Shown: positions 3,841 through 64,000 of the stretch, piece after piece
Layout: each line of letters starts with the position of its first letter
Position numbering within the stretch: position 1 is the first letter of the stretch
Assembly: GCA_017529865.1 (NCBI GenBank)
Contig: JAFXNA010000018.1
Location: forward strand, 105,138 to 169,137
DNA: 64,000 nt
Origin: Bacteroidaceae bacterium
Lineage (GTDB): Bacteria; Bacteroidota; Bacteroidia; Bacteroidales; Bacteroidaceae
Direction of reading: 5' to 3'
Notes under the pieces: generated by a model
Databases searched by the model: none
What the model saw: only the letters and a program-made list of their open reading frames with translations
Told to the model about the DNA's origin: nothing
Position numbers and translations under genes: made by a program

Positions 3841-4473
3841 CCGACCATTATTCATTCATCTAATTAGCTGTATTACAATGAGTTACAATATCAGTAAATC
3901 GAATTCCTCTATGAGGCAAACGCTCGGAAAGGGATAGAATGTATAAAAATCCTGCTCTTTTAGGCCTCAAAAGATATGCAAACCCCCTTGTTTTGATGTT
4001 TTACCCTATATTTTGCGAACATATCAGTTGTTCTGAATTTCAGTACTTTGAACTCATTTTGAAGGTATTATGTGGCATAATGGTTAATTTGGTTGCAGAA
4101 ATAGGGGTAATAAGGGCCAAAATAACCCAGTCTTCTTTGATAATAACGAGGACTTATTCGAGGATAAGGATGGATTATTGAGTAAGATATTAATATTAAT
4201 TTAACATAATTTGCCATTAACAATTAACACTTCATTATTGCTCCTAACAAGAGGGTATTAAAGGAAAAAATTGTTACCCTTAAGGGAAAATTTTGTTACT
4301 ATTAAAGGTAACAAATGTTAGTCCTAAGGATTGAAAAATAAAGTATATAAAGGAAGAGAATATGAAGCTTGAAGTTAGTTATCAAATTGATAAGGAGAGA
4401 GTAAAAGTTAAAAAAATGAGGGTACTTTATCAATTATTTGATAAAGCATAATTTGTATTTAATAATTATTTCG

Positions 4474-4524: not shown

Positions 4525-7371
4525 ATGGAATACAACTTCAGAGAGATTGAACAGAAGTGGCAGCAGCGATGGGTGGAGCAGAAGACCTATCAGGTTGCAG
4601 AAGACAGTAGTAAGAAGAAATTTTATGTGCTGAACATGTTTCCTTACCCCAGTGGTGCAGGACTGCATGTGGGGCACCCATTAGGATATATTGCAAGTGA
4701 CATCTATGCACGCTACAAGCGTCTGCAGGGATTCAATGTGCTGAACCCTATGGGCTATGATGCCTATGGACTGCCTGCAGAGCAGTATGCCATACAGACT
4801 GGTCAGCACCCAGAAGTGACTACTTTCCAGAATATCAACCGTTATCGTGAGCAGCTGGATAAAATCGGCTTCTGCTTTGACTGGAATCGTGAGGTACGTA
4901 CTTGTGATCCTGGCTACTACCACTGGACTCAATGGGCTTTCCAGAAGATGTTCAACAGCTTCTATTGCTACAAATGCCAGTCGGCTCAACCTATAGACTC
5001 ACTCATCAAGCATTTTGAGGAGAAGGGCACAGAGGGTCTGGATGTGGCTCAGAGTGAGGAACTGACCTTCACTGCTGAGGAATGGAAGGCAATGGATGAG
5101 AAGCAGAAGAGTGACACACTGATGAACTACAGGATTGCATTCCTGGCAGAGACTAATGTGAACTGGTGTCCAGGACTTGGGACAGTTCTTGCCAATGATG
5201 AGGTGGTTGATGGTGTGAGTGTGAGAGGTGGATTCCCTGTAGAGCAGAAGAAGATGCGTCAGTGGTGTCTGCGTGTGTCAGCCTATGCTCAGCGTCTGCT
5301 GGATGGTCTTGACACCATAGACTGGAGTGAAAGTATCAAGGAAACCCAGAGAAACTGGATTGGCAGAAGTGAGGGTGCTGAAGTGAAGATAAAGGTGGCT
5401 GACAGTGATGTGGAGTTCACTATCTTCACCACCCGTGCTGATACCATGTTTGGTGTGACCTTCTTTGTACTGGCTCCTGAGAGTGAGCTGGTGGACTTGG
5501 TGACTACTGCTGATCAGCGTAAGGCTGTGGATGACTATATCAAGTATGTGAAGGGCAGAACTGAACGTGAACGTATGATTGACCATACTGTGACTGGTGT
5601 GTTCTCAGGTGCATACGGCATCAACCCTATCACAGGTGACAAATGTCCTATCTATGTGGCTGAATATGTGTTGGCAGGCTATGGTACAGGTGCCATCATG
5701 GCAGTACCTGCTCATGACAGTCGTGACTATGCCTTTGCCAAGCATTTCAATCTGCCTATTATCCCTCTGATTGAGGGGGCAGACATCAGCGAGGAGAGCT
5801 ATGATGCCAAGGAAGGTATTGTGATGAACTCACCAAAAGTAGAGCCCCTCTCTAACTCCCCCGAGGGGGAGGACTCTTTGGTGCTCAATGGGCTTACAGT
5901 AAAAGAGGCGATTGCAAAGACAAAGGAATATATTACCAGAACAGGTTTAGGACGTGTGAAGGTGAACTACCGCTTGCGTGATGCTATCTTCAGCCGTCAG
6001 AGATATTGGGGTGAACCATTCCCTGTGTATTACAAGAACGGTATTCCTCAGATGATTCCAGAGGAGTGTCTGCCTATTCAGTTGCCTGAAGTTGATAAGT
6101 TCCTGCCAACAGAGACGGGTGAACCTCCATTGGGCAATGCCACCTGCTGGGCTTGGGACGAAGCAAATAAGCAGATTGTGGAGAATAGCAAGATAGACAA
6201 CCAGACAGTCTTCCCAATCGAACTCTATACGATGCCAGGATTTGCAGGCTCATCAGCCTACTACCTGCGCTATATGGACCCTCACAACAATGAGGCTCTG
6301 CTTTCGAAGCAAGCTGCTGAATACTGGCAGAATGTGGACCTCTATGTAGGTGGAAGCGAACATGCTACTGGTCACCTGATCTATAGCCGATTCTGGAACA
6401 AGTTCCTGTATGACCTGGGCATCAGTGTGAAGGAAGAGCCATTCCAGAAGCTGATCAACCAAGGTATGATTCAAGGCAGGAGCAACTTTGTGTATCGCAT
6501 CAAGGACACCAACACCTTCGTGAGCCTGGACAAGAAAGAGGGCTATGAGGTGACTCCAATCCATGTGGATGTGAACATCGTGTCAGCTGATGTGCTGGAT
6601 GTAGAGGCATTCAAGGCATGGCGCCCTGAGTATCATGATGCAGAATTCATCCTGAATGATGAAGGTAAATACATCTGTGGATGGGCAGTGGAGAAGATGT
6701 CAAAGTCAATGTTCAATGTGGTGAACCCAGACATGATTGTAGAGAAGTTCGGTGCTGACACCCTGCGTCTGTATGAGATGTTCCTTGGTCCAGTGGAGCA
6801 GAGCAAGCCTTGGGACACCAATGGCATTGATGGCTGCCACCGTTTCCTGAAGAAATTCTGGAACTACATGACTGCCGACACCAAGGAGTGTGACCCTACA
6901 GCTCAGGAACTGAAAGCACTGCACACCCTCATCAAGAAGGTGACAGGCGACATTGAGCAGTTCTCATACAACACCAGCATTGCTGCCTTCATGATCTGTC
7001 TGAACGAACTGACCAAGATAAAGAGTGAGAGCAAGGCAGTGAAAGAGGCATTGGCTGTATTGATAGCACCATTCTGTCCGCACTTGGCAGAAGAGCTGTG
7101 GGAGATGCTGGGACATGCCACAACTGTGTGTGATGCCCCATGGCCAGCCTTCAATGAAGAATATCTGAAAGAGGACAACATGAAGATGATGGTGGCCTTC
7201 AATGGTAAGGCACGCTTCCCACTGGAATTCCCTGTGGGCACAGAGCAGCAGACCATCATCGACACTGCACTGCAGGAACCACAGTCGCAGAAGTGGCTGG
7301 AAGGATTCAATGTGGTGAAGGTGATTGTGGTGCCTGGCAAGATGATTAATATAGTACTGAAACCAGCATAA
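4525..7371 (+). CDS. leuS: leucine--tRNA ligase
   Basis: [16 protein letters not shown], a HVGH (HIGH-type) motif, [16 protein letters not shown], and KMSKS. The start is taken at the ATG at 4525 because the promoter box lies inside the longer ORF. Confidence 0.95.
5843..5871 (+). repeat. GC-rich hairpin element (two C-boxes and one G-box) embedded in frame in leuS
   Basis: agcccctctctaactcccccgagggggag is identical over 29 nt to intergenic 50959-50987. ctccccc/gggggag forms the stem. Confidence 0.85.
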
Positions 7372-19417: not shown

Positions 19418-19521
19418 CACATTATTTAGCATTTCACAATTTACCATTTACTATTTTTCTGCAATTCCTTTGTTTTTCGCCTTCAATCCGTGGGGTTTTG
19501 CTGTTTGTGCCTGACAAGTGG

Positions 19522-21275: not shown

Positions 21276-21317
21276 GTTTATAGTTTACGGTTTACAGTTT
21301 ACGGTTTACAGTTTTTT
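21276..21317 (-). repeat. period-7 array (GTTTACR x6 on plus; TAA x5 in minus-strand sense) filling the spacer upstream of hisS
   Basis: The plus strand has tta at 21278, 21285, 21292, 21299 and 21306. Confidence 0.85.
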
Positions 21318-22680: not shown

Positions 22681-22686
22681 CAAAAA

Positions 22687-22718
22687 TAATTTATAATTCA
22701 TAATTCATAATTCATAAT
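22687..22718. repeat. heptamer array (TCATAAT)n in a divergent promoter region
   Basis: TAA at 22687, 22694, 22701, 22708 and 22715 on the plus strand. The complementary units attatga give TGA at 7-nt spacing on the minus strand. Confidence 0.85.
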
Positions 22719-27403: not shown

Positions 27404-28417
27404 ATGGCAAAAAATAATATCATAGTAAAATTACAACGTTGGATGGACAGCAAAGCCGGTCAGATGTTTCTGAACTATGCTTATAGCTGGGGTGCATCTA
27501 TCGTAATCCTCGGAGCGCTGTTTAAAATCACACACATCGACGGTGCCGACTTTATGCTCTTCCTTGGTATGGGAACTGAGGTTATCGTGTTCTTCCTCGC
27601 AGGATTTGAACGTCCTTACGACGTAGACAACAAGAAAGAAGGAACTGCCAACACAGAATTGGCAGGTGGAGAACCTGCTACTATCGGTGGTGGCGGCGGA
27701 ACCTTTATCGTAGGAGGCGGTATACCTGGTGCTACTGGTGGTAGTGGAGAATCCGTCATTGTAGAAGGTGGAGAAAGTGGAGAAGCTGCTGCAATAAGTG
27801 GTAGCGGAGTATCAGGTGGCGGAAGCGGAGTGCCTGGTGGCGGAACCATCATCATTGGTGGAGGTGGTGGCGGAAGCGGAGTGCCTGGTGGCGGAACCAT
27901 CATCATTGGTGGAGGTGGTGGCGGAAGCGGAGTGCCTGGTGGCGGAAGCGGTCAGCCAGTGGGAGCACCTGTTGTTGCACCAATTGCTGCAAGTGGAGAG
28001 AATGCACAACCAACCGAAAATGCTCAATCCATCGATCCTGCCCAACTTGCAGGAGCTATTGCTGCTTCGCCAATCGTGGCTTCTCCTCAATTTACTGGTA
28101 TGTGTCCAGAGATGCAAGAGGCAACCCAGACGTATGTTGATCAGTTGAATGAATTGACAGATATCTTGAAGAAGGTTGCTGAGCAATCTGCACGCCTTAC
28201 CCGTGACTCTGAAGAGATGGAGAATATGAACCGCACGCTTACTGGTATCAATCGCTTCTACGAGATGCAGTTGCGTAGCGTGAGTGCCCAGAGTGCTTCG
28301 GTTGATGAAGTCAATGAGCAGACCAAACGTCTGGCAAGCCAGCTTGAGGAACTCAATCAGGTATATGCCCGTATGGTTGAAGCCTTGAAAGTGAATATGA
28401 CGGTCAAGGGAGATTAA
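27404..28417 (+). CDS. porL: T9SS motor protein PorL/GldL, with a Gly-rich repetitive linker
   Basis: Two N-terminal TM helices (GASIVILGALFKITH, LGMGTEVIVFFLAGFE) and a C-terminal coiled-coil region. Sits between porK and porM. Confidence 0.88.
   Translation: MAKNNIIVKLQRWMDSKAGQMFLNYAYSWGASIVILGALFKITHIDGADFMLFLGMGTEVIVFFLAGFERPYDVDNKKEGTANTELAGGEPATIGGGGGTFIVGGGIPGATGGSGESVIVEGGESGEAAAISGSGVSGGGSGVPGGGTIIIGGGGGGSGVPGGGTIIIGGGGGGSGVPGGGSGQPVGAPVVAPIAASGENAQPTENAQSIDPAQLAGAIAASPIVASPQFTGMCPEMQEATQTYVDQLNELTDILKKVAEQSARLTRDSEEMENMNRTLTGINRFYEMQLRSVSAQSASVDEVNEQTKRLASQLEELNQVYARMVEALKVNMTVKGD
27815..27946 (+). repeat. perfect 51-bp tandem repeat, 2 full units plus 30 nt, in frame inside porL
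   Basis: The unit ggtggcggaagcggagtgcctggtggcggaaccatcatcattggtggaggt encodes GGGSGVPGGGTIIIGGG. Units are at 27815-27865 and 27866-27916, with a partial unit at 27917-27946. Confidence 0.9.
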
Positions 28418-28424
28418 AGCAGAA

Positions 28425-28453
28425 CCTCCCCCGCCCCCTCCCAAGGAGGGGAG
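28425..28453 (+). repeat. GC-rich two-C-box/one-G-box hairpin in the porL-porM spacer
   Basis: cctccccc-g-ccccctcc-caa-ggaggggag, directly after the porL stop. Confidence 0.7.
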
Positions 28454-33614: not shown

Positions 33615-35270
33615 ATGGCTAATTTACCAGACTTTAAGTATGCCCCGATGTTTCAGGTGGGCAAGGACACAACCGAATACCGTCTGCTGACGAAAGAAGG
33701 GGTGACAGTGAGTGAATTCGAAGGTCACGAAATTGTGAAGGTATCCAAGGAGGCACTGACGCTGCTGGCTCAGCAGGCTTTCCACGACGTGGAGTTCATG
33801 TTGCGTCGCGAACACAACGAGCAAGTAGCAAAAGTACTACGTGACCCCGAAGCTTCGGAGAACGACAAGTATGTGGCCCTGCAGTTCCTACGCAATGCCG
33901 AGGTGGCGTGCAAGGGTGTGCTCCCGTTCTGCCAGGACACTGGTACGGCCATCATTCATGGCGAGAAAGGCCAGCAGGTATGGACGGGATTTGAGGACGA
34001 AGAGGCTCTGAGCCTCGGTGTGTTCAACACCTATACGCAGGACAACCTTCGCTACTCACAGAACGCTCCGCTCGACATGTACAACGAGGTGAATACGAAG
34101 TGTAACCTGCCAGCTCAGATTGATATCGAGGCCGTGGAGGGTGACGAATACCGCTTCGTAATGGTAGCCAAAGGTGGAGGTTCGGCTAACAAGACCTACT
34201 TCTATCCGATGACGAAAGCCACGATTCAGAACGAGGGAACATTGCTGCCGTTCCTCGTTGAGGAAATGAAGCACCTTGGTACTGCAGCCTGTCCGCCATA
34301 CCATATCGCTTTCGTAATCGGTGGTACATCGGCCGAGAAGAACCTCCTGACCGTGAAGCTCGCCAGCATCAAATACTACGACAACCTGCCAACCACAGGC
34401 GATGAGACAGGACGTGCATTCCGCGACATCGATCTGGAGCAGAAACTGCTGAAGGAAGCCTTCAAGATTGGGCTAGGTGCACAATTCGGCGGCAAATATC
34501 TGGCTCACGACATCCGCGTTATCCGTCTTCCTCGTCACGGAGCTAGCTGCCCTATCGGAATGGGTGTCAGCTGTAGTGCAGACCGCAATATCAAGGCTAA
34601 AATCAACAAGGACGGTATCTGGTTGGAGAAGATGGACGACAACCCAACAGAACTGATTCCAGAAGAATACCGCAAGCCAGGTGAAGGAACGAAAGGTATT
34701 GAAATCGACCTCGACAAAGGCATCGATGCCGTTCGCGCTGAACTGACCAAGTACCCTGTGTCCACTCGCGTGAACCTCAAGGGAACCATCATCGTAGCTC
34801 GCGACATTGCTCACGCCAAACTGAAAGCACGCCTGGATGCAGGCGAAGGTATGCCTCAGTACTTTAAGGACTATCCTGTGCTCTATGCAGGACCTGCCAA
34901 GACACCAGAAGGCTATCCTTGCGGCTCGATGGGACCGACCACAGCCAACCGTATGGACCCATACGTAGACGAGTTCCAGGCAAACGGAGCCAGTCTGGTG
35001 ATGATTGCGAAGGGCAACCGCACTCAGCAAGTAACTGACGCCTGCAAGAAACACGGCGGATTCTACCTCGGAACCATCGGAGGTGTGGCAGCCGTTCTCT
35101 CACAAAGCAGCATCAAGAGCATCGAATGTGTGGAATACCCAGAACTCGGTATGGAAGCCATCTGGAAGATTCAGGTAGAAGACTTCCCTGCCTTCATTCT
35201 CGTGGACGATAAGGGCAACGACTTTTTCAAGCAGTTGAAACCCTGCGAAGGATGCACCATATTAGAGTGA
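33615..35270 (+). CDS. fumB: class I (Fe-S) fumarate hydratase, fused alpha/beta type
   Basis: [20 protein letters not shown], and a C-terminal GPTTA.RMD..V. The start is taken at MANLPDF because the promoter box lies inside the longer ORF. Confidence 0.88.
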
Positions 35271-35294
35271 AGAGTGGAGAGTGAAGAGATAGAG
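35265..35294 (+). repeat. GTGAAGAG-type purine-rich repeat with stops in three frames
   Basis: gagTGAagagtggagagTGAagagaTAGag; the first TGA is the fumB stop. Confidence 0.75.
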
Positions 35295-35732: not shown

Positions 35733-36293
35733 ATGGAAGACGTAAAAGTGTACCTCAACGCTGCCGAAGAAGATATGGAGATGGCAGCCATGAATCTTGA
35801 GGAGAAATTAAGCCGCATCCGTGCCGGACGTGCCAACGTACATATCCTCGACGGAATCCGCGTAGACTCTTACGGGTCAATGATGCCGCTGAACAACGTG
35901 GCATCTCTCACTACTCCTGATGCACGTTCCATCATCATCAAACCTTGGGACAAGAACATGCTGAAGGTCATCGAAAAAGCTATCATCGACTCATCCGTAG
36001 GTATCATGCCTGAGAACAATGGTGAACAGTTGAGACTGGGTATCCCTGTACTGACAGAGGAACGCCGTAAAGAACTCACCAAACAGTGCTCTAAAGAGGC
36101 TGAATCGGCAAAGGTAAGTGTAAGAAACGCTCGTCGCAATGCCATCGAGAAGCTGAAGAAAAGCGTGAAAGAAGGTGTGCCCGAGGACGTAGAGAAAGAT
36201 GCCGAAGAGCAGTGCCAGAAACTTCACGATAAATACATCAAGAAGATTGACGGAATGCTCGACGAGAAGAACAAGGAAATCATGACCGTTTAA
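35733..36293 (+). CDS. frr: ribosome recycling factor
   Basis: LSRIRAGRANVHILDGIRVDSYG and LTEERRKEL.K. Start at MEDVKVYL. Confidence 0.93.
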   Translation: MEDVKVYLNAAEEDMEMAAMNLEEKLSRIRAGRANVHILDGIRVDSYGSMMPLNNVASLTTPDARSIIIKPWDKNMLKVIEKAIIDSSVGIMPENNGEQLRLGIPVLTEERRKELTKQCSKEAESAKVSVRNARRNAIEKLKKSVKEGVPEDVEKDAEEQCQKLHDKYIKKIDGMLDEKNKEIMTV

Positions 36294-36320
36294 TTGACAA
36301 TTGATTATTGACAATTGAAA
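36291..36320 (+). repeat. period-7 stop array taattga/caattga/ttattga/caattga
   Basis: TAA at 36291 (the frr stop), then TGA at 36295, 36302, 36309 and 36316. Confidence 0.8.
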
Positions 36321-43622: not shown

Positions 43623-44747
43623 ATGGAAAAAGCATTTGTATATGGTATGTCTGTAGAGGGAGACAACTTTACAGACAGGGTGAAGGAAACTTTACGGCTG
43701 AAACTGGATTTCGAGAATGGCATCAACGTCGTTCTGGTATCTCCACGCCGAATCGGAAAAAGTTCAGTGGTACGGAAAGTGATAAAAGAAATCACTAATC
43801 CAGAGATAAAAACGGTGTTTATGGATATTTACGATTGCAGAAGCGAGTATGATTTCTATAACCGTTTTGCCTCCGAATTGTTAAAGCAGACAGCTACTAA
43901 GAGTGAGCAGGTGATAGAAAATATCAAACGTTTTCTGGTTAGACTGACTCCCAAGATTGCCTTTTCGCCAGAGCCAATGTCTGAATATTCGCTATCATTG
44001 GGGATTACTCCTCAGAACTACCAACCAGAAGAGATTCTTCAGTTACCGGAAATGATCGGCAAAGCTCAAGGAGTACATATTGTAGTATGTATCGACGAAT
44101 TTCAGCAGATAGGCGAGATGTCAGATACATTGACCATTCAGAAGCGTTTACGCGGAATATGGCAGCATCAGCGCAATGTGTCGTATTGTCTGTTTGGGAG
44201 CAAGAAACACCTAATGACCAAACTATTCCAAAATCGTAAGATGCCTTTTTATCAGTTTGGCGAGATGATGTATCTGGACAAGATTCCAACGGCAGACTGG
44301 GTGCCGTTTATCTGCTCAAGATTCGAGAGTCATGGAAAACAGATATCAGAGGAACTTGCAAAGAGAATCTGTGAAACGGTAGATGGCAACTCTTCGTATG
44401 TACAGCAATTAGCATGGAATGTCCTTGCAGAAACAGAGAATGTTACAACAGAAGAAGACTTCAATCGTGGTGTCGATGCCCTGTTGGCACAATGCTCTGC
44501 CCTCTTCGAAGAGCAGTTGAAGGGGCTGACCGGGTATCAAATGAACTTTATCCGTGCCCTGTGTGATGGTGTGAGTTCCGACTTCAGCAGCAAAGCAATC
44601 CTCGAAACTTATAATCTTGGTAGCAAGTCGAACGTCTCACGAATCAAGGGTGCACTACAAGATAAAGAAATGATTGACTTCGATAAAGATAGCGTCTATT
44701 TAGAAGACCCTGTTTTTAAGATTTGGTATAAACGAAAAAGCAAGTGA
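43623..44747 (+). CDS. AAA-type ATPase (Arch_ATPase / ATPase_2 family)
   Basis: F.DR..E...L, Walker A SPRRIGKSSVV, Walker B VVCIDEFQ. Confidence 0.7.
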   Translation: MEKAFVYGMSVEGDNFTDRVKETLRLKLDFENGINVVLVSPRRIGKSSVVRKVIKEITNPEIKTVFMDIYDCRSEYDFYNRFASELLKQTATKSEQVIENIKRFLVRLTPKIAFSPEPMSEYSLSLGITPQNYQPEEILQLPEMIGKAQGVHIVVCIDEFQQIGEMSDTLTIQKRLRGIWQHQRNVSYCLFGSKKHLMTKLFQNRKMPFYQFGEMMYLDKIPTADWVPFICSRFESHGKQISEELAKRICETVDGNSSYVQQLAWNVLAETENVTTEEDFNRGVDALLAQCSALFEEQLKGLTGYQMNFIRALCDGVSSDFSSKAILETYNLGSKSNVSRIKGALQDKEMIDFDKDSVYLEDPVFKIWYKRKSK

Positions 44748-44755
44748 TGCCAACA

Positions 44756-44830
44756 GCCCTTCTGCAGCGTCTTGATGCGCTGACCCTGCAAATTATAAAT
44801 AGCGTTGTTCCTCTCCCCATGAGGGGGAAA
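44756..44830 (-). pseudogene. relic of a T9SS C-terminal sorting domain
   Basis: The minus strand reads FPPHGERNNAIYNLQGQRIKTLQKG. The nucleotides align with 62841-62905 of the CTD of the serpin at 62795-64000. It is cut off by the ATPase gene end. Confidence 0.6.
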
Positions 44831-44926
44831 GAAGTGAAGAGTGGAGAGAACTTTTTTTGCGAAATGATGCAAGATTTCCGATAGTTTGGGATTTATACTC
44901 ATGAAAACCATTAAACTTTGAGTATT

Positions 44927-46186
44927 ATGCTAAAAAGGACTTTATGGGTAGCCATCCCCCTGACAATGATGGCAACCGTAATAACTGGATGTAGTAGTGA
45001 TGACAATGATGCTCCCGACACTACTGATCCTGTTGAATTGACGCTGACTCGCGGAGAACAGGAGTTGGTAAACCTAAGTAATGTGTTTGCTTTCGATTTG
45101 TTTCGTGTGATTCAGGATGGTGTGAATAGTCAGATACTCTCACCTCTTAGCGTCACTTATGCTCTCGGTATGCTTAACAACGGTGCTGCAGGTGAAACAC
45201 AGGAACAAATTAATAAGGTATTAGGATTTGGCAACTATGGAGCCGACAGCATCAATGCTTTTTGTATTAAGATGATGCGCATTGCTCCTTTGCTCGACCC
45301 TAAGACAAAAGTGATGATTGCCAACAACATCTATCTAAATAAAGGGTATGAACTGAAGTCCGACTTCGTACAAAAAGCGAATACCTTCTACGATGCAACA
45401 CCCGAAACACGTGACTTCGCTGACGGCAAGACCGAGAATGTCATCAATCAATGGGCAAGCGACCATACGGAAAAGATGATACAAAAGTTGTTCGATAAAG
45501 GTCAGTTCAATCCCTTTGCCGTCAGCTACCTGCTCAATGCCATCTATTTTAAGGGCTTATGGACAAATAAGTTCGACAAGGCCAAGACAAAACAAGAGGT
45601 GTTTGAGCATGCGGGTGAAACGGAGGAGCTTACCTATTGCATGATGATGCACCAAACTGATAAATTTGACTATACAGAGACTGCCGATTGCCAAGTTCTA
45701 AGATTGCCATACGGCAATGGTTCGTTCGCAATGACAATATTCCTGCCGAAAGTACAGTCTAATGACGTTTCCACCAATGACGTTCCAAAGGTACCTACTG
45801 CTGAGGAATGGCAACGAGTGAACCAGACGATATATCCTGCGAAGGTAGATGTGAAACTACCACGTTTCGAGACAAATACGGATATTGGCCTAAACAGCGT
45901 TATGGCCGCGCTTGGTATGCCTAATGCCTTTAACCCGGAAAAGGCAGATTTCACCAACTTCTGTAACAAGCCAACATATATCACCATGATGAAGCAGGTG
46001 GCTAAAATCAAACTCGACGAGGAAGGAACCGAGGCTGCAGCAGTCACAGTCATTGAGGTTAATACTACGTCAATGCCAGGACCTTCTCAAACAATCGAAT
46101 TCCACGCCAACCGTCCGTTCCTCTATGTCATCAGCGAACGGCAGTCGGGAGCAATTTTCTTCATAGGTCAATATACAGGGTATTGA
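44927..46186 (+). CDS. serpin-family protease inhibitor, lipoprotein form
   Basis: Lipobox VITGC; SPLSVTYALGMLNNGA.GET; hinge GTEAAAVT; ..F.ANRPF. Confidence 0.85.
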   Translation: MLKRTLWVAIPLTMMATVITGCSSDDNDAPDTTDPVELTLTRGEQELVNLSNVFAFDLFRVIQDGVNSQILSPLSVTYALGMLNNGAAGETQEQINKVLGFGNYGADSINAFCIKMMRIAPLLDPKTKVMIANNIYLNKGYELKSDFVQKANTFYDATPETRDFADGKTENVINQWASDHTEKMIQKLFDKGQFNPFAVSYLLNAIYFKGLWTNKFDKAKTKQEVFEHAGETEELTYCMMMHQTDKFDYTETADCQVLRLPYGNGSFAMTIFLPKVQSNDVSTNDVPKVPTAEEWQRVNQTIYPAKVDVKLPRFETNTDIGLNSVMAALGMPNAFNPEKADFTNFCNKPTYITMMKQVAKIKLDEEGTEAAAVTVIEVNTTSMPGPSQTIEFHANRPFLYVISERQSGAIFFIGQYTGY

Positions 46187-50476: not shown

Positions 50477-50509
50477 TAATGCATAATTCATAATGCATAA
50501 TTCATAATT
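50477..50509 (+). repeat. period-7 TAA array (taatgca/taattca x2.5) after argS
   Basis: TAA at 50477, 50484, 50491, 50498 and 50505. Confidence 0.85.
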
Positions 50510-50541: not shown

Positions 50542-50952
50542 GTGGAAAGGGTAAACGAGGCGTTGTGTGTGGATGCTGCATGTAGCGGAAATCCGGGGAA
50601 AATGGAATATCGGGGGGTACATATCCCTTCGGGTAAAGAAATATTCCATTATGGACCTGTGTATGGCACGAATAACATCGGAGAATTTCTGGCTATCGTT
50701 CATGCGTTGGCATTGTTGAAGAAAAAAGGGTCGAACATGACCATCTATTCCGACAGTTTCACCGCTCGCACTTGGGTGCAAAAGAAGAAATGTAAGACCA
50801 ATCTGGAGCGAAACGAGAAGACGGAACAGCTGTATCAGATTATCGCACGGGCAGAGAACTGGCTTCGCAACAACACCTATTCGAATGCCATTGAAACGTG
50901 GCAGACGGATGAATGGGGTGAGATTCCTGCAGATTTCGGAAGGAAAAAATAA
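50542..50952 (+). CDS. RNase H1-type catalytic domain protein lacking the usual N-terminal hybrid-binding domain
   Basis: VDAACSGNPG.MEYRGV, TNNIGEFLAIVHAL, IYSDS, WGEIPADFGRK. Only a GTG start is available, immediately after the dispersed repeat. Confidence 0.7.
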   Translation: MERVNEALCVDAACSGNPGKMEYRGVHIPSGKEIFHYGPVYGTNNIGEFLAIVHALALLKKKGSNMTIYSDSFTARTWVQKKKCKTNLERNEKTEQLYQIIARAENWLRNNTYSNAIETWQTDEWGEIPADFGRKK

Positions 50953-50958
50953 AAAGAT

Positions 50959-50987
50959 AGCCCCTCTCTAACTCCCCCGAGGGGGAG
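50959..50987 (+). repeat. GC-rich hairpin element, intergenic copy
   Basis: 29/29 identity with 5843-5871. Confidence 0.85.
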
Positions 50988-50998
50988 AACTGGGAACC

Positions 50999-51032
50999 TT
51001 AAATGGTAAATGGTTAAATGGTCAATAAATAG
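50999..51032 (+). repeat. TAAATGG-type repeat upstream of the ABC transporter gene
   Basis: ttaaatggtaaatggttaaatggtcaataaatag; its stop triplets fall in all three frames. Confidence 0.7.
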
Positions 51033-54186: not shown

Positions 54187-54243
54187 AAATAGACATTAGA
54201 CATTAGACTTTAGGCTTTAGAGAATAAACACTAGACTTTAGAG
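54187..54243 (+). repeat. eight stop triplets at exact 7-nt spacing after metK
   Basis: TAG/TAA at 54190, 54197, 54204, 54211, 54218, 54225, 54232 and 54239. Confidence 0.9.
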
Positions 54244-60375: not shown

Positions 60376-60386
60376 ATATCTTAAAA

Positions 60387-60405
60387 CTTTTCACTTTTCA
60401 CTCTA
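60387..60405 (-). repeat. GTGAAAAG repeat with TAG/TGA/TGA upstream of the DUF3098-like gene
   Basis: The minus strand reads TAGagTGAaaagTGAaaag; the TAG is the ftsX stop. Confidence 0.7.
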
Positions 60406-61275
60406 AATATGATACAACTCGTTACTGCTCATTTTGAGATATTTCGACAATGAGAAATAAGTGCAGAGGAATGTGATGAGTAAGCCGAACACAAAGACTG
60501 AGACGCTTACGATAATCATCACCTTCATATCAATCACTGTATTGATTTCGGCATCGAAGTTCTTTGCCCAATACACAATGCTAATGATAATGGCATCAGC
60601 AATAATCGCTGACAACACACCCAACAGCAGTCCTTGATTGAGGAATGGTCTGCGGATGAAACCCCAACTGGCACCAACCAGCTTCATGGTGTTGATGATG
60701 AACCGTCGTGAGAAGATGGTCAGCCGCACCGTATTGTTGATCAAGGCAAACGAGATATAGGTGAATAAGGCTGCGATGATGAGCAGAATGATACTGAACT
60801 TACGGATGTTATTGTTCACCGAGTTCATCAGCTCCTTCTGATAAATCACATCCATCACCTTCTCCGTACCCTTCAGTTGCTTTGCAATCTTACTGAGGCT
60901 CTGATTATTGGCATATTCCGACTTCACCTTGATTTCAAACGAAGCCGTGAAGGGGTTATAGCCTAAGAACTCCGATGGGTCTGTACCCATATCGATACAT
61001 TGCTCATGCAGCGCACGCTCTTTCGAGATATACTTCAGCGACTTCACATAAGGCTGCTCCTCCAGTGATTTCTGCAGCGATGCAATCTCGCCCTGAGCAA
61101 TATCGTCGCTCAGCAGAATCGTCACATTGAAGTTCTCCTTCACATAGGTCGACAGATTGCGTGCTGTCAGCACAAACAGCACAATCGTTCCCAGCAACAC
61201 CAATACCAGCGACGTACTAATCAATGCCGTCACAAACTGCGTACTCAATAAACTTGAAGCTCTATTCTTTGACAT
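60403..61275 (-). CDS. ftsX: cell division permease FtsX-like
   Basis: 290 aa: an N-terminal TM helix, a periplasmic domain and three C-terminal TM helices (FtsX topology). Confidence 0.75.
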   Translation of the reverse strand: MSKNRASSLLSTQFVTALISTSLVLVLLGTIVLFVLTARNLSTYVKENFNVTILLSDDIAQGEIASLQKSLEEQPYVKSLKYISKERALHEQCIDMGTDPSEFLGYNPFTASFEIKVKSEYANNQSLSKIAKQLKGTEKVMDVIYQKELMNSVNNNIRKFSIILLIIAALFTYISFALINNTVRLTIFSRRFIINTMKLVGASWGFIRRPFLNQGLLLGVLSAIIADAIIISIVYWAKNFDAEINTVIDMKVMIIVSVSVFVFGLLITFLCTYFSLSKYLKMSSNELYHI

Positions 61276-61284
61276 CTCTCTAAA

Positions 61285-61304
61285 TTTTCACTTTTCACTC
61301 TTCA
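61285..61304 (-). repeat. period-7 TGA x3 array (minus-strand sense) from the miaB stop towards the ftsX start
   Basis: The plus strand has tca at 61288-90, 61295-97 and 61302-04. Confidence 0.8.
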
Positions 61305-62663
61305 CTTCTCTCCCCTTGAGGGGGAGTTGGAGGGGGCTTCCACCCCTTTCAATGTAGCTGAACTTGCCTCCGTAATCTTCACCTTCACAAAGTCGCCGAT
61401 ATGATGATTGTTACGGTCGAACACCACTACCTTATACTGCTGTGTGCGTCCGAACAACTGATCTTTCGAACGTTTGCTCACACCTTCCACCAGCACCTCG
61501 AACGTCTTGCCGATATCGCGCTGATAGCTCTCAGCCGACAGCTGGTTCTGTAGCGCAATCAGTTCGTTCAGTCGGCGAATCTTTGTCTCTTCAGGCACAT
61601 CGTCAGGCAGATGCTTCGATGCGTAAGTGCCTGGACGCTCCGAATACTTGAACATGAAGGCACTGTCATACTGGCATTCCCTCATCAGCGAAAGCGACAA
61701 CTGATGATCCTCTTCCGTCTCAGAGTGATAGCCGCAGAAGATGTCAGTCGTCAGTCCACAATCGGGGATGATGCGACGAATGGCAGCCACACGTTCCAGA
61801 TACCACTCGCGCGTATATTTTCTGTTCATCAGCTGCAGGATGCGGTTGCTTCCGCTCTGTACAGGCAGATGGATGTGTCGGCAGATATTCGGATAGTCGG
61901 CAATCACCTGCAACGTCTCGTCGCTCATATCCTTCGGATGCGAAGTTGTGAATCGGATGCGCATATCAGGCACCGCCTCAGCCACTCTTCTGAGCAACTC
62001 CGGGAAGTTAATCTCCGTTCCCTCTCCCTCGGTGGCCTTATACGAGTTCACATTCTGTCCCAGCAGCGTCACCTCTTTGAAACCCTTTGCCTGCAAGTCC
62101 TTCACTTCGTTCAGGATGCTGCTGATGTCCCTGCTTCGCTCACGTCCTCTGGTGTAAGGCACGATGCAATAATGGCAGAAGTTGTTGCAGCCACGCATGA
62201 TGCTCACAAACCCGGAAATGCGATTACCACAGATACGTTCGGGTATGATGTCCTTATAAGTTTCTGTTGTCGACAGCTCAACATTGATGGCTTTCTCGCC
62301 AGCTTCGACAGCAGCAAATAATTCGGGCAACTGCAAATACGAATCAGGACCGGCAACCAAGTCCACATGGTGATGCTCAATCAGGTCCTCCTTCACACGT
62401 TCGGCCATACAGCCAACCACACCGATGATTTTGAGATTTTTGGTTTTTGAGTTCTTGAGTCGTAAGTGATTCAATTCTTCCAATCTGTGGAATATCTTCT
62501 GCTCCGCATTGTCACGCACCGAGCACGTATTTAGCAACACAGCATCTGCACCCTCTATCGAGTCCTGGCTCTCATAGTCAGCCATTTTCATCACCGAGGC
62601 AATCACCTCACTGTCTGCCACATTCATCTGACAGCCGTAGGTTTCTATATAGAGTTTCTTCAT
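61302..62663 (-). CDS. miaB: tRNA (N6-isopentenyl adenosine(37)-C2)-methylthiotransferase
   Basis: IETYGCQMN, radical-SAM motif GCNNFCHYCIVP, and a TRAM domain. The C-terminal tail APSNSPSRGEK is encoded by the GC hairpin element. Confidence 0.95.
   Translation of the reverse strand: MKKLYIETYGCQMNVADSEVIASVMKMADYESQDSIEGADAVLLNTCSVRDNAEQKIFHRLEELNHLRLKNSKTKNLKIIGVVGCMAERVKEDLIEHHHVDLVAGPDSYLQLPELFAAVEAGEKAINVELSTTETYKDIIPERICGNRISGFVSIMRGCNNFCHYCIVPYTRGRERSRDISSILNEVKDLQAKGFKEVTLLGQNVNSYKATEGEGTEINFPELLRRVAEAVPDMRIRFTTSHPKDMSDETLQVIADYPNICRHIHLPVQSGSNRILQLMNRKYTREWYLERVAAIRRIIPDCGLTTDIFCGYHSETEEDHQLSLSLMRECQYDSAFMFKYSERPGTYASKHLPDDVPEETKIRRLNELIALQNQLSAESYQRDIGKTFEVLVEGVSKRSKDQLFGRTQQYKVVVFDRNNHHIGDFVKVKITEASSATLKGVEAPSNSPSRGEK
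61308..61337 (-). repeat. GC-rich hairpin element forming the last codons of miaB
   Basis: The plus strand reads ctctccccttgagggggagttggagggggc and shares agggggagttggaggggg with 62901-62918. Confidence 0.8.
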
Positions 62664-62794: not shown

Positions 62795-64000
62795 TCATCT
62801 AACGATGACCTTCTTCCCATCCACAATGTTCAATCCCTTCTGCAACGCCCCCATCCGCTGACCCTGCAAGTTGTAGATGGCATTGTTCCTCTCCCCATAG
62901 AGGGGGAGTTGGAGGGGGTCTTTAATTCCCGTCGCCCCTTCACCCATATACTGACCCATGAAGAGGATGACGCCTGCCGACTGCTCGCTGATGATGTAGA
63001 AGAACGGACGGTTGGCATGAAATTCTACCGATCTGGGCGCACTATCCGTTGTCATAATAGCTGTCACGGCAGCTGCTTCGGTACCTTTCTCGTCTAACTT
63101 GATCTTAGCCACCTGCTTCATCATGCCGATATAGTCGTCCTCATCATCGTCGCCTACCAACATGAGCGAAAGGTCAGCTTCGTAAGGACTGAAGGCAGAA
63201 GGCATACCCAACTCCGACATCACACCTATCAGGTCCTGATCGGTATCAGTCTCGAATCGAGGCAAAGAGAGGTCCACCTCACACATATCGCCCCACATCT
63301 TCCAGTTCTTCCCGTTCAAGTTCTCAATCACCTCATCGAGGGTCTTACCCTCATGAGGCAGGAACACCTGCATGTTGTACGTTCCGTTTCCGTAGGGCAG
63401 TTTGATCGTTTGATAAAGGTCGTTCTCGTCATATTCTGCCTCCAACTCTTGGTGCATCATCGGCACCTTCTCGCCGCCTGCAAATGGTTCGTCCTTCGTG
63501 TTTTCGACCATGAACGGAGTACTCCACATCCCCTTGAAATATGTTGCATTCAGCAGATAGCTCACAGCATAAGGATTGAACTCACTTTCGCTCAACACTT
63601 CCTTTATCATTCCCTCCGTATGGTCACTTGCCCATTTGTTGATGACGCCACGCGTCTCTCCGTCGTTAAAGTCACGCGACTGCGGATACGCACGATAATA
63701 ATGGTTCACAGTATGTGTGAAGTCCTTCTCCAGTTCAAATCCACGCCCTTTGTTCACGAAGATGGTGTTCGAAATCATGGCCGTCGTCGTATAGTCCACG
63801 TTGCCAGCCCAAAGGAGTTCGTTCGTCAGCTTCAGGCAGAACTCGTTCTGAGCATTCACATCGTCGAATCCCAACACGCGATAGATCTCCTGCTGCGTCT
63901 TCCCCGCTGTTCCGTTGTTCAGCATACCCAGCGCGTAGGTGATGCTCAGCGGTGAGAGCACCTTACTCTCTCCGTCGCGCGCCTTGCGGAACAGGTTGAA
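62795..64000 (-). CDS. serpin-family protease inhibitor with a T9SS C-terminal sorting domain; the 5' end lies beyond the window
   Basis: The frame stays open to position 64000 (FNLFRKARDGESKVLSPLSITYALGMLNNG). Hinge GTEAAAVT. C-terminus ..NAIYNLQGQRMGALQKGLNIVDGKKVIVR. Confidence 0.85.
   Translation of the reverse strand, partial: FNLFRKARDGESKVLSPLSITYALGMLNNGTAGKTQQEIYRVLGFDDVNAQNEFCLKLTNELLWAGNVDYTTTAMISNTIFVNKGRGFELEKDFTHTVNHYYRAYPQSRDFNDGETRGVINKWASDHTEGMIKEVLSESEFNPYAVSYLLNATYFKGMWSTPFMVENTKDEPFAGGEKVPMMHQELEAEYDENDLYQTIKLPYGNGTYNMQVFLPHEGKTLDEVIENLNGKNWKMWGDMCEVDLSLPRFETDTDQDLIGVMSELGMPSAFSPYEADLSLMLVGDDDEDDYIGMMKQVAKIKLDEKGTEAAAVTAIMTTDSAPRSVEFHANRPFFYIISEQSAGVILFMGQYMGEGATGIKDPLQLPLYGERNNAIYNLQGQRMGALQKGLNIVDGKKVIVR
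62888..62918 (-). repeat. GC-rich hairpin element in frame inside the serpin CTD linker
   Basis: The plus strand reads cctctccccatagagggggagttggagggggt, which encodes DPLQLPLYGER on the minus strand. Confidence 0.8.

Follow-up and report, generated by a model that had tools for sequence, protein, structure and literature searches.

A putative intrastrand triplex repeat of the BoxC class in frame in leuS of a Prevotella-like rumen bacterium, and its translated and gene-oriented relatives in Bacteroidota

The leucyl-tRNA synthetase gene leuS of a rumen Prevotella-like bacterium, located in a 64-kb stretch of contig JAFXNA010000018.1 (the window, in whose positions coordinates are given unless another locus is named), was found to contain the 29-mer AGCCCCTCTCTAACTCCCCCGAGGGGGAG in frame at 5843-5871 (+). 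Judged by its sequence, this 29-mer is an interspersed repeat of the intrastrand triplex motif type, i.e., of the class that comprises BoxC, the 'potential intrastrand triplex' (PIT) and TM elements. As to both identity and history, the leuS copy is very probably a repeat of this class that became incorporated into a loop of leucyl-tRNA synthetase (LeuRS). The gene and the parts of the element are as follows:

4525..7371, + strand: leuS, LeuRS coding sequence, 948 amino acids (aa), with about 8000 homologs and the Pfam domains tRNA-synt_1/Anticodon_1
5843..5871, + strand: in-frame triplex-motif element in leuS, encoding (E)PLSNSPEGE, residues 440-449
5844-5850, + strand: third-strand (Hoogsteen) box gCCCCTC
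5851-5855, + strand: linker TCTAA
5856-5862, + strand: pyrimidine arm CTCCCCC
5863-5864, + strand: loop GA
5865-5871, + strand: purine arm GGGGGAG

The initial annotation of this DNA had reported an identical 29-mer downstream of the RNase H gene, related copies at 28425, 61308 and 62888 and a partial one at 44810. All of these were recovered, with slightly different borders for the copies on the - strand:

50959..50987, + strand: identical 29-mer (29/29), intergenic, sense orientation, beginning 6 nt past the RNase H stop codon (50950-52)
28425..28451, + strand: CCTCCCC-CGC-CCCCTCC-CAA-GGAGGGG, sense, between gldL/porL (stop codon 28415-17) and gldM; a different sequence with the same mirror logic
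61310..61337, - strand: CCCCTC-CAA-CTCCCC-CTCAA-GGGGAG, providing the final 10 codons of MiaB
62891..62917, - strand: element translated as DPLQLPLYGE, the linker between a serpin domain and a short tail resembling the C-terminal domain (CTD) of the type IX secretion system (T9SS)
44812..44830, - strand: half element, an imperfect hairpin without third box, within a decayed copy of the CTD-like tail

No match to the 29-mer was obtained in 100 dinucleotide-preserving shuffles of the window even with up to 3 mismatches allowed (chance expectation 0), and a simple detector of full elements counted 5 in the window versus 0-1 per shuffle (20 shuffles). Each of the five has its C-rich strand in the sense direction of the containing or preceding gene, and three of them (leuS, MiaB and serpin) overlap coding sequence. 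A CTCCCCC/GGGGGAG-type hairpin was predicted at every window copy with ViennaRNA, in line with the 6-7-bp GC hairpin proposed earlier, and the third box mirrors the arm at 6/7 positions in the leuS copy (gCCCCTC / CTCCCCC / GGGGGAG) and at 6/6 or 7/7 in the others. A scan of the window against Rfam at gathering thresholds gave no matches, thus the element is not a described RNA family. The copy at 50959 follows the RNase H gene (50542-50952, assigned by NCBIfam and Pfam PF00075); the next gene, encoding an ABC transporter (51033), begins 45 nt on, and a (TAAATGG)n heptamer tract lies directly 3′ of the element. This copy and the entire 80-nt spacer around it were invariant in eight independent metagenome assemblies (L143-L150; L and P numbers are our handles), the sole exception being a one-base shift in L148, in which one A is added upstream of the element and one T is missing downstream. 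Unlike this copy, those in miaB, serpin and leuS are polymorphic.

Elements with the same plan were found well beyond the window. A scan of one genome per species with the pattern CCCCTC-N0-3-AACTCCCCC-N1-6-GGGGAG yielded at least 120 loci. Among the matches listed, 65 of 80 titled loci were from Bacteroidota (Prevotellaceae, other Bacteroidales, Chitinophagaceae, Flavobacteriia, and Prolixibacteraceae) and the other 15 from Chloroflexota, Patescibacteria, a melainabacterium and a few proteobacterial metagenome-assembled genomes (MAGs). The same 28-mer was present in about 10 different metagenome contexts. Neither of the two outcomes named in the initial annotation as speaking against the repeat was encountered, i.e., the same peptide in LeuRS orthologs lacking intergenic copies or a 29/29 match without recurrence elsewhere in the genome. 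On the C-rich strand, the order of the blocks is third-strand box, (T/C)AA, pyrimidine arm, loop and purine arm, with the first box mirroring the pyrimidine arm. The flanks of the matched loci contained other GC-rich hairpins of different sequence in which the upstream box was again the mirror image of the pyrimidine arm, e.g., CCCCTCC-TAA-CCTCCCC-loop-GGGGAGG and CCCCTCT-AAA-TCTCCCC-loop-GGGGAGA. This mirror rule was evaluated on 145 hairpins that lay outside the selection made by the search pattern and whose arms were not self-mirror: a mirror box with at most one mismatch was present in 106 of them, and when both strands were counted (290) there were 53 perfect mirror boxes compared to four perfect direct repeats and one box complementary to the arm. 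The rule is followed by 37 different arm sequences (at least 120 loci, mostly Bacteroidota). The linker was 3 nt long in 74 of 110 cases and is 5 nt (TCTAA) in the leuS subfamily; elements measure about 26-32 nt, with stems of 6-8 nt and hairpin loops of 2-7 nt.

The third strand of a triple helix requires a mirror relation to the duplex arm, and we know of no replication or pairing process that makes such a relation otherwise. The commonest departure from an exact mirror was T to A on the C-rich strand (67 of 121 substitutions). This corresponds to the T·A-T / A·A-T alternative on the G-rich strand and therefore points to a DNA purine motif, in agreement with the A or T that this motif allows in the third strand opposite A-T pairs. 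The family also conforms to the ITxF criteria (stems 6-15 nt, loops 1-6 nt) and to the ITxF class II/IV block order of pyrimidine arm, complementary purine arm and mirror third block. One strand would accordingly fold into a hairpin with a third strand in the major groove, the triplex being of the purine motif if formed by the G-rich DNA strand and of the pyrimidine motif if formed by the C-rich strand. Attenuator-like pairing of the first C-box with the G-arm was considered and rejected, as box 1 mirrors the C-arm and does not repeat it, and the upstream box was no more complementary to the arms than background. At some loci, the elements were arranged in tandem with a period of about 43-49 nt or hairpins alone were arrayed with A-rich spacers (L056:1532-1645, L014:2828-2905, L013, and L082), and at three loci (L009, L041, and L081) two element copies face each other over a spacer of 20-45 nt.

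The leuS open reading frame (ORF) as listed starts with TTG at 4438, while the conserved protein starts with ATG at 4525 (MEYNF...) and is an exact match to MBR6893245.1, 'MAG: leucine--tRNA ligase [Bacteroidaceae bacterium].' Within it the element is read as E440-PLSNSPEGE-449, and the closest orthologs are without it, as had been suggested. Among the best 120 of about 8000 LeuRS homologs, PLSNSPEGE was shared only by a cluster representative with 98% identity, and the others showed NSP, 11 to 15 residues, and LNG at this site (loop length among Bacteroidales 11-16 residues). The peptide is thus absent from close orthologs and not ancestral. The statement in the initial annotation that Bacteroidetes LeuRS run from NS almost directly into LNGL did not hold: Bacteroidales carry a loop of 11-15 residues, and it is the Thermus thermophilus and Escherichia coli enzymes that run almost directly. 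Sequence alignment to LeuRS entry 1h3n and to E. coli LeuRS entries placed a 15-residue gap of the T. thermophilus enzyme exactly at the element site (between NSGPFD and G) and a shorter gap in E. coli LeuRS at the same site (between NSGE and FNGL). From these gaps the site can be described as a loop prone to indels, close to where the editing (CP1) domain ends C-terminally.

Two leuS alleles were distinguished within the 90% cluster, one with the 16-residue element loop (948-949 aa) and one with MAGKT[A/S]YKNFS...AIAATKKFVEE[E/Q]K (943-944 aa). Both are linked blocks and no intermediates occur in this cluster; the element-free proteins, with MAGKT[A/S]YKNFS at the site, are 92-96% identical overall to the window LeuRS. 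The element is therefore a lineage-specific replacement in a hypervariable LeuRS loop and not a simple addition. The proposed unique insertion of about 15 residues stands as regards its restriction to one lineage, with alleles up to 96% identical lacking it, but not as regards its size, since 16 residues take the place of the 11 residues MAGKTAYKNFS (net +5). At the DNA level, one block was always linked to the element:

5836..5952, + strand: haplotype block, 99-100% identical to element-bearing L123, L124, and L128

The same block is only 53-82% identical to the otherwise near-identical L121/L122 allele, which is element-free at this position (site 1), and about 80 nt of divergent sequence downstream of the element travel with it as a single haplotype block. 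The 540 nt upstream of the element are 99-100% identical to L121/L122, and the whole of leuS (4525-7371) is a recombination mosaic in which segments of a few hundred nt alternate between 99-100% identity to one strain group and 83-93% to the other. As the differences within 5836-5952 are mostly of synonymous type, the block came in from a more diverged lineage through homologous recombination and was not mutated in place; a mutational shower beside the element was rejected as the cause of the divergent 3′ flank for the same reason. The element-bearing block has spread between strains through homologous recombination. A protein search for the donor with the local region of 61 residues returned only short element-free fragments. 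The insertion junctions were the same in three independent assemblies from different samples (L123, L124, and L128), which excludes an assembly artefact.

Strains without the site-1 element (P0002-P0006, P0009, and P0011; L121/L122) were found to carry an identical 28-mer elsewhere in leuS, at about residue 149 (site 2). In L121/L122, it is read in the same frame as at site 1, and 20 residues replace 13. Further alleles contained other elements at this site and one at a third site:

L121:3446-3471: leuS site-2 element of L121
L140:~670-720: leuS site-2 element, CCCCTCC-CGA-CCTCCC-loop-GGGAGG
L141:~760-800: leuS site-2 element, CCCCTCC-CAA-CCTCCCC-GA-GGGGAGG
L142:~760-810: leuS site-2 element, CCCTCCC type
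L141:~880-910: leuS site-3 antisense element, SSPSGETEGG

Four different element sequences were thus present at site 2 across related alleles, and the L140 flanks differ from those of the other three, which indicates at least two insertions there. With one further insertion each at sites 1 and 3, the sequences point to at least four independent hits of leuS. Sites 2 and 3 lie within an insertion of roughly 55 residues that is missing from T. thermophilus and Mycoplasma LeuRS, and of all 90-nt windows in leuS the two element sites show the lowest conservation (identity 0.53-0.54, compared to at least 0.82 elsewhere).

Besides leuS, the window contains two further translated copies. MiaB ends in GVE-APSNSPSRGEK, while orthologs without any difference in the other 443 residues (100% identity) terminate in GVEE or GVEV, and the MiaB model TIGR01574 ends at residue 440 of 453. 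In the serpin, the linker DPLQLPLYGE is encoded by the element, and strain L126 has a heptamer tract of the same length there. Loci fetched from the scan were screened for long ORFs in which Pfam domains flank the element on either side, and such positions were found in SecA, in Mfd of two species, in FeoB (three to four copies), in a P-type ATPase (two copies), in a PD-(D/E)XK nuclease and in a fused E1 dehydrogenase. A candidate methyltransferase-like ORF from a metagenome match, a label given without Pfam check, carries the exact 28-mer in frame. Sense copies encode (A/T)P(S/L)SNSPxxGE or PLQLP and antisense copies SPxGG(V/L)(E/G)G; the form with a TAA linker has a stop codon in one sense frame, so that only two frames are tolerable. 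To judge from these reading frames, translated triplex-motif copies are recurrent in Bacteroidota and affect many housekeeping proteins. An in-frame element in an aminoacyl-tRNA synthetase had been considered unusual; this view cannot be upheld with three of five window copies overlapping coding sequence, leuS hit at two further sites, and copies in SecA, Mfd and FeoB.

Some observations were made around the serpin copy. The serpin tail directly after the element is a short T9SS-CTD-like sequence (NAIYNLQGQRMGALQKGLNIVDGKKVIVR; 62795-62890, - strand), and a decayed copy of this tail with the half element occupies 44696-44911 (-), with an AAA-ATPase ORF on one side and a second serpin gene (44918-46186), itself without CTD-like tail, on the other. 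At locus L035, an element stands immediately before the CTD motif YDLTGRRV.

The position of the elements relative to genes was determined for 276 of them. The end of a long open frame was located no more than 10 nt from the C-rich side of 44 elements and from the G-rich side of seven (binomial p = 1e-7), and the 44 stop-adjacent elements were followed by a co-directional gene in 25 cases and by a convergent gene in nine. The usual Bacteroidota element is located 0-9 nt past a stop codon with its C-rich strand as the sense strand. On the basis of this pattern, orientation and stop adjacency point to a constraint tied to transcription or translation. Canonical intrinsic terminators were rejected as an explanation, since no T-run follows the hairpin and copies are found inside operons such as gldL-gldM. 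No description of gene-oriented, stop-adjacent and often translated triplex motifs was found in the literature searched; the architecture itself is already known from the BoxC class, and it is this behavior that is new. It is conceivable, although we regard it as rather unlikely, that the Bacteroidota triplex motifs form an active strand-oriented element system and not inert debris, placed or kept by stop codons and also driving loop diversification. The folded strand would then take part in a process connected with the end of translation or transcription, such as protection or processing of mRNA 3′ ends inside operons, termination-coupled control, or replication or repair signaling, and structure-preserving conversion between copies might bring about a cassette-like diversification of surface loops in proteins, among them essential enzymes such as LeuRS, SecA, and Mfd.

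Comparison to known repeats places the element closest to BoxC of E. coli, which was rediscovered as PIT and studied as TM_ECO (Holder et al., 2015; PMC4666352). TM_ECO was described as a triplex of the class II purine motif on the G-rich strand and of a pyrimidine-motif class on the C-rich strand, with TTA as second loop, frequent inverted pairs, no promoter or terminator activity and a surrounding sequence that changes faster between close strains (PMC4666352). The elements described here resemble it in their three consecutive G/C-rich blocks, of which the third mirrors the purine arm (class II and class IV in the scheme of Holder Figure 1C), in loops of 2-6 nt, the second usually TTA or TTG, in a T or A in the third strand opposite A-T pairs, and in frequent inverted pairs, many near-identical copies and local turnover between close strains. 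They differ in having arms of 6-8 nt (CTCCCCC, CCTCCCC, and others) compared to the 9-nt CCCTCNCCC of TM_ECO, and the consensus CCCTCNCCC-N3-6-GGGNGAGGG-N3-GGGNGAGGG is not matched by the leuS copy with its 7-nt arms CTCCCCC/GGGGGAG, from which we conclude that it belongs to the same class as BoxC but to a different family. TM_ECO is moreover reported to be always intergenic without strand or distance preference toward genes (PMC4666352), whereas here the C-rich strand is sense to the upstream gene, the element abuts the stop codon (44 versus seven stops), and a sizeable share is translated, including three of five copies in the window. Bacteroidetes or coding copies are not mentioned by Holder et al. 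(2015; PMC4666352).

A likeness in behavior exists to the Rickettsia palindromic elements (RPEs), which also are selfish-looking palindromic repeats residing in frame in many unrelated, often essential genes as a tolerated, family-typical peptide. RPEs are about 100-150 bp long and were reported only from Rickettsia (Ogata et al., 2000, reviewed in PMC10969869). Apart from this in-frame residence in housekeeping genes nothing is shared: the sequences are unrelated, RPEs have no triplex (mirror) architecture, and the element from Bacteroidota is 29 nt long and adds only about 9-10 residues. H-DNA shows the same homopurine/homopyrimidine mirror symmetry as, e.g., CCCCTC-TAA-CTCCCC, but typical H-DNA tracts are much longer than the arms here, and the element has a third, complementary block. 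Due to this block a single strand can form the whole triplex, and unwinding of a long duplex tract is unneeded. The label 'REP/MITE-like' of the initial annotation is appropriate in the loose sense of a short GC-rich repeat. Like repetitive extragenic palindromic (REP) sequences and bacterial interspersed mosaic elements (BIMEs), associated with REP-associated tyrosine transposases (RAYTs), these are short GC-rich palindromes in many copies typically just downstream of genes; Liang, Rudd and Deutscher are said to have shown in 2015 that translation termination is influenced by E. coli REPs if these lie no more than about 15 nt from a stop codon. The label fails in the strict sense. There is no conserved GTAG/CGTC head: upstream flanks of 131 pattern matches were mostly AGC, GAC, GGC, or TAC, and GTAG was only sporadic, the leuS copy happening to carry it. 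Copies are not strictly extragenic, no RAYT was seen in the 64 kb of the window, and the mirror box is not explained by REP biology. The marks of a MITE (miniature inverted-repeat transposable element), i.e., terminal inverted repeats, target-site duplication and an exact empty site, were absent from four filled/empty comparisons.

In all four of these comparisons the element replaces a stretch of similar length. In the serpin linker (62888-62920 versus L126:1240-1275), the alternative is an in-frame AATGCATAATTCA-type tract of the same length, and at the miaB 3′ end (61275-61340 versus L125-L127:2830-2960) it consists of GTGAAAG/GTGAAGA heptamers and 76 nt of other sequence. Neither clean empty site nor target duplication was seen at rnhA, where the copy was fixed in all eight assemblies retrieved. 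On this account, a copy of the very homogeneous subfamily GCCCCTCTCTAACTCCCCCGAGGGGGAG was incorporated in an open frame into the hypervariable LeuRS loop. Because none of the filled/empty comparisons has a target-site duplication, we infer arrival by a recombination- or repair-type replacement, possibly conversion from other copies, and not by cut-and-paste transposition; subsequent spread would have been via homologous recombination. The leuS copy is most likely a tolerated passenger that would encode a flexible surface loop rich in Pro, Ser, Gly, and Glu.

Several points weigh against this account of a BoxC/PIT/TM-class repeat incorporated as a passenger. The TM_ECO triplex is stable in vitro, but none was detectable in vivo (PMC4666352). 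ViennaRNA sees only a hairpin, with an energy that is ordinary compared to shuffled GC-rich 46-mers (z -0.3 to -1.3), so that the evidence lies in recurrence and covariation and not in folding energy. Incorporation left neither target-site duplication nor clean empty site at leuS sites 1 and 2, the miaB 3′ end or the serpin linker, and the passenger status is argued from just two observations, presence/absence polymorphism and loop variability. An AlphaFold2 model of LeuRS was too poor to judge surface exposure (mean predicted local distance difference test 49, predicted template modeling score 0.34), because the alignment contained only sequences with at least 84% identity. Finally, site-2 alleles with the same flanks have different cores, each keeping all three boxes matched, which could mean selection on the fold even inside coding sequence.

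This last observation leads to the alternative that the leuS copy is retained because it has its own function, as a structured site in DNA or mRNA where polymerase or ribosome would pause between the editing domain and the second half of the catalytic core, or as a recombination hot spot by which the loop is diversified. Three matched site-2 cores in the same flanks would be expected from it, the orientation of the family relative to genes is in its favor, and the low conservation of leuS around both element sites fits the instability reported around TM_ECO. We nevertheless hold such a function to be improbable: strains whose alleles are up to 96% identical evidently manage with 11 loop residues in place of the site-1 element, three leuS sites were hit in different lineages and conserved in none, a hairpin of 7 bp would do little to hold up a ribosome, and matched cores are equally explained by conversion from other genomic copies. 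Transposition of a conventional mobile repeat into leuS, either a REP moved by a RAYT of the Y1/HUH type or a MITE moved by an insertion sequence (IS) transposase, would account for many identical copies at unrelated sites, for presence/absence polymorphism at miaB and serpin between nearly identical strains and for the facing pairs with short spacers, which resemble MITE ends. Terminal inverted repeats are missing from such a single 26-32-nt unit, however, and replacement of similar-length stretches without target-site duplication, the lack of a GTAG/CGTC head (flanks mostly AGC, GAC, or GGC) and the mirror relation of box 1, which is neither a REP nor a MITE feature, make this explanation quite improbable. 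No transposase-like domain was seen among the ten otherwise unassigned ORFs of the window (0/10), and for BoxC/TM_ECO no link to mobile elements was detected (PMC4666352). That PLSNSPEGE is an ordinary ancestral LeuRS peptide with a coincidental or leuS-derived intergenic match, or that the locus is an assembly chimera, would be extremely surprising given 29/29 identity with none expected, a family found overwhelmingly after genes and across phyla, close orthologs without the peptide, and the same junctions in at least three independent assemblies.

For 25 years, BoxC/PIT/TM repeats have been on record with no function assigned to them, and in E. coli they resemble featureless intergenic debris. 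The Bacteroidota version differs from this in being gene-oriented, tight on stop codons and repeatedly translated in housekeeping proteins, with leuS hit separately at least four times within one Prevotella clade. Presence/absence alleles between nearly identical strains offer a natural system for the function and movement of such repeats, and the elements may be a source of rapid loop variation in essential proteins in the manner of Rickettsia RPEs at an order of magnitude smaller size. For annotation and phylogenetics of Bacteroidota, they are a warning that PSNSPxxGE and SPxGGxxGG peptides are repeat-derived and mark recombination-prone, alignment-breaking spots.

The window also contains short, A/T-rich tandem arrays that fill gene spacers; their period is 7 nt, in some cases 8 or 14 nt, and their unit sequences are of many different kinds. 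They often begin a few nt after a stop codon or end right before the next start codon, and two of them lie directly 3′ of triplex elements:

19424-19456, 21276-21314, 22686-22718, 35264-35288, 36292-36318: heptamer-type arrays
50477-50509, 51000-51026, 54190-54242, 60386-60402, 61285-61307: heptamer-type arrays

A repeat of another kind, a perfect 51-nt tandem repeat in 2.6 copies, was found inside gldL/porL (27815-27947), where it encodes Gly-rich GGGSGVPGGGTIIIGGG units.

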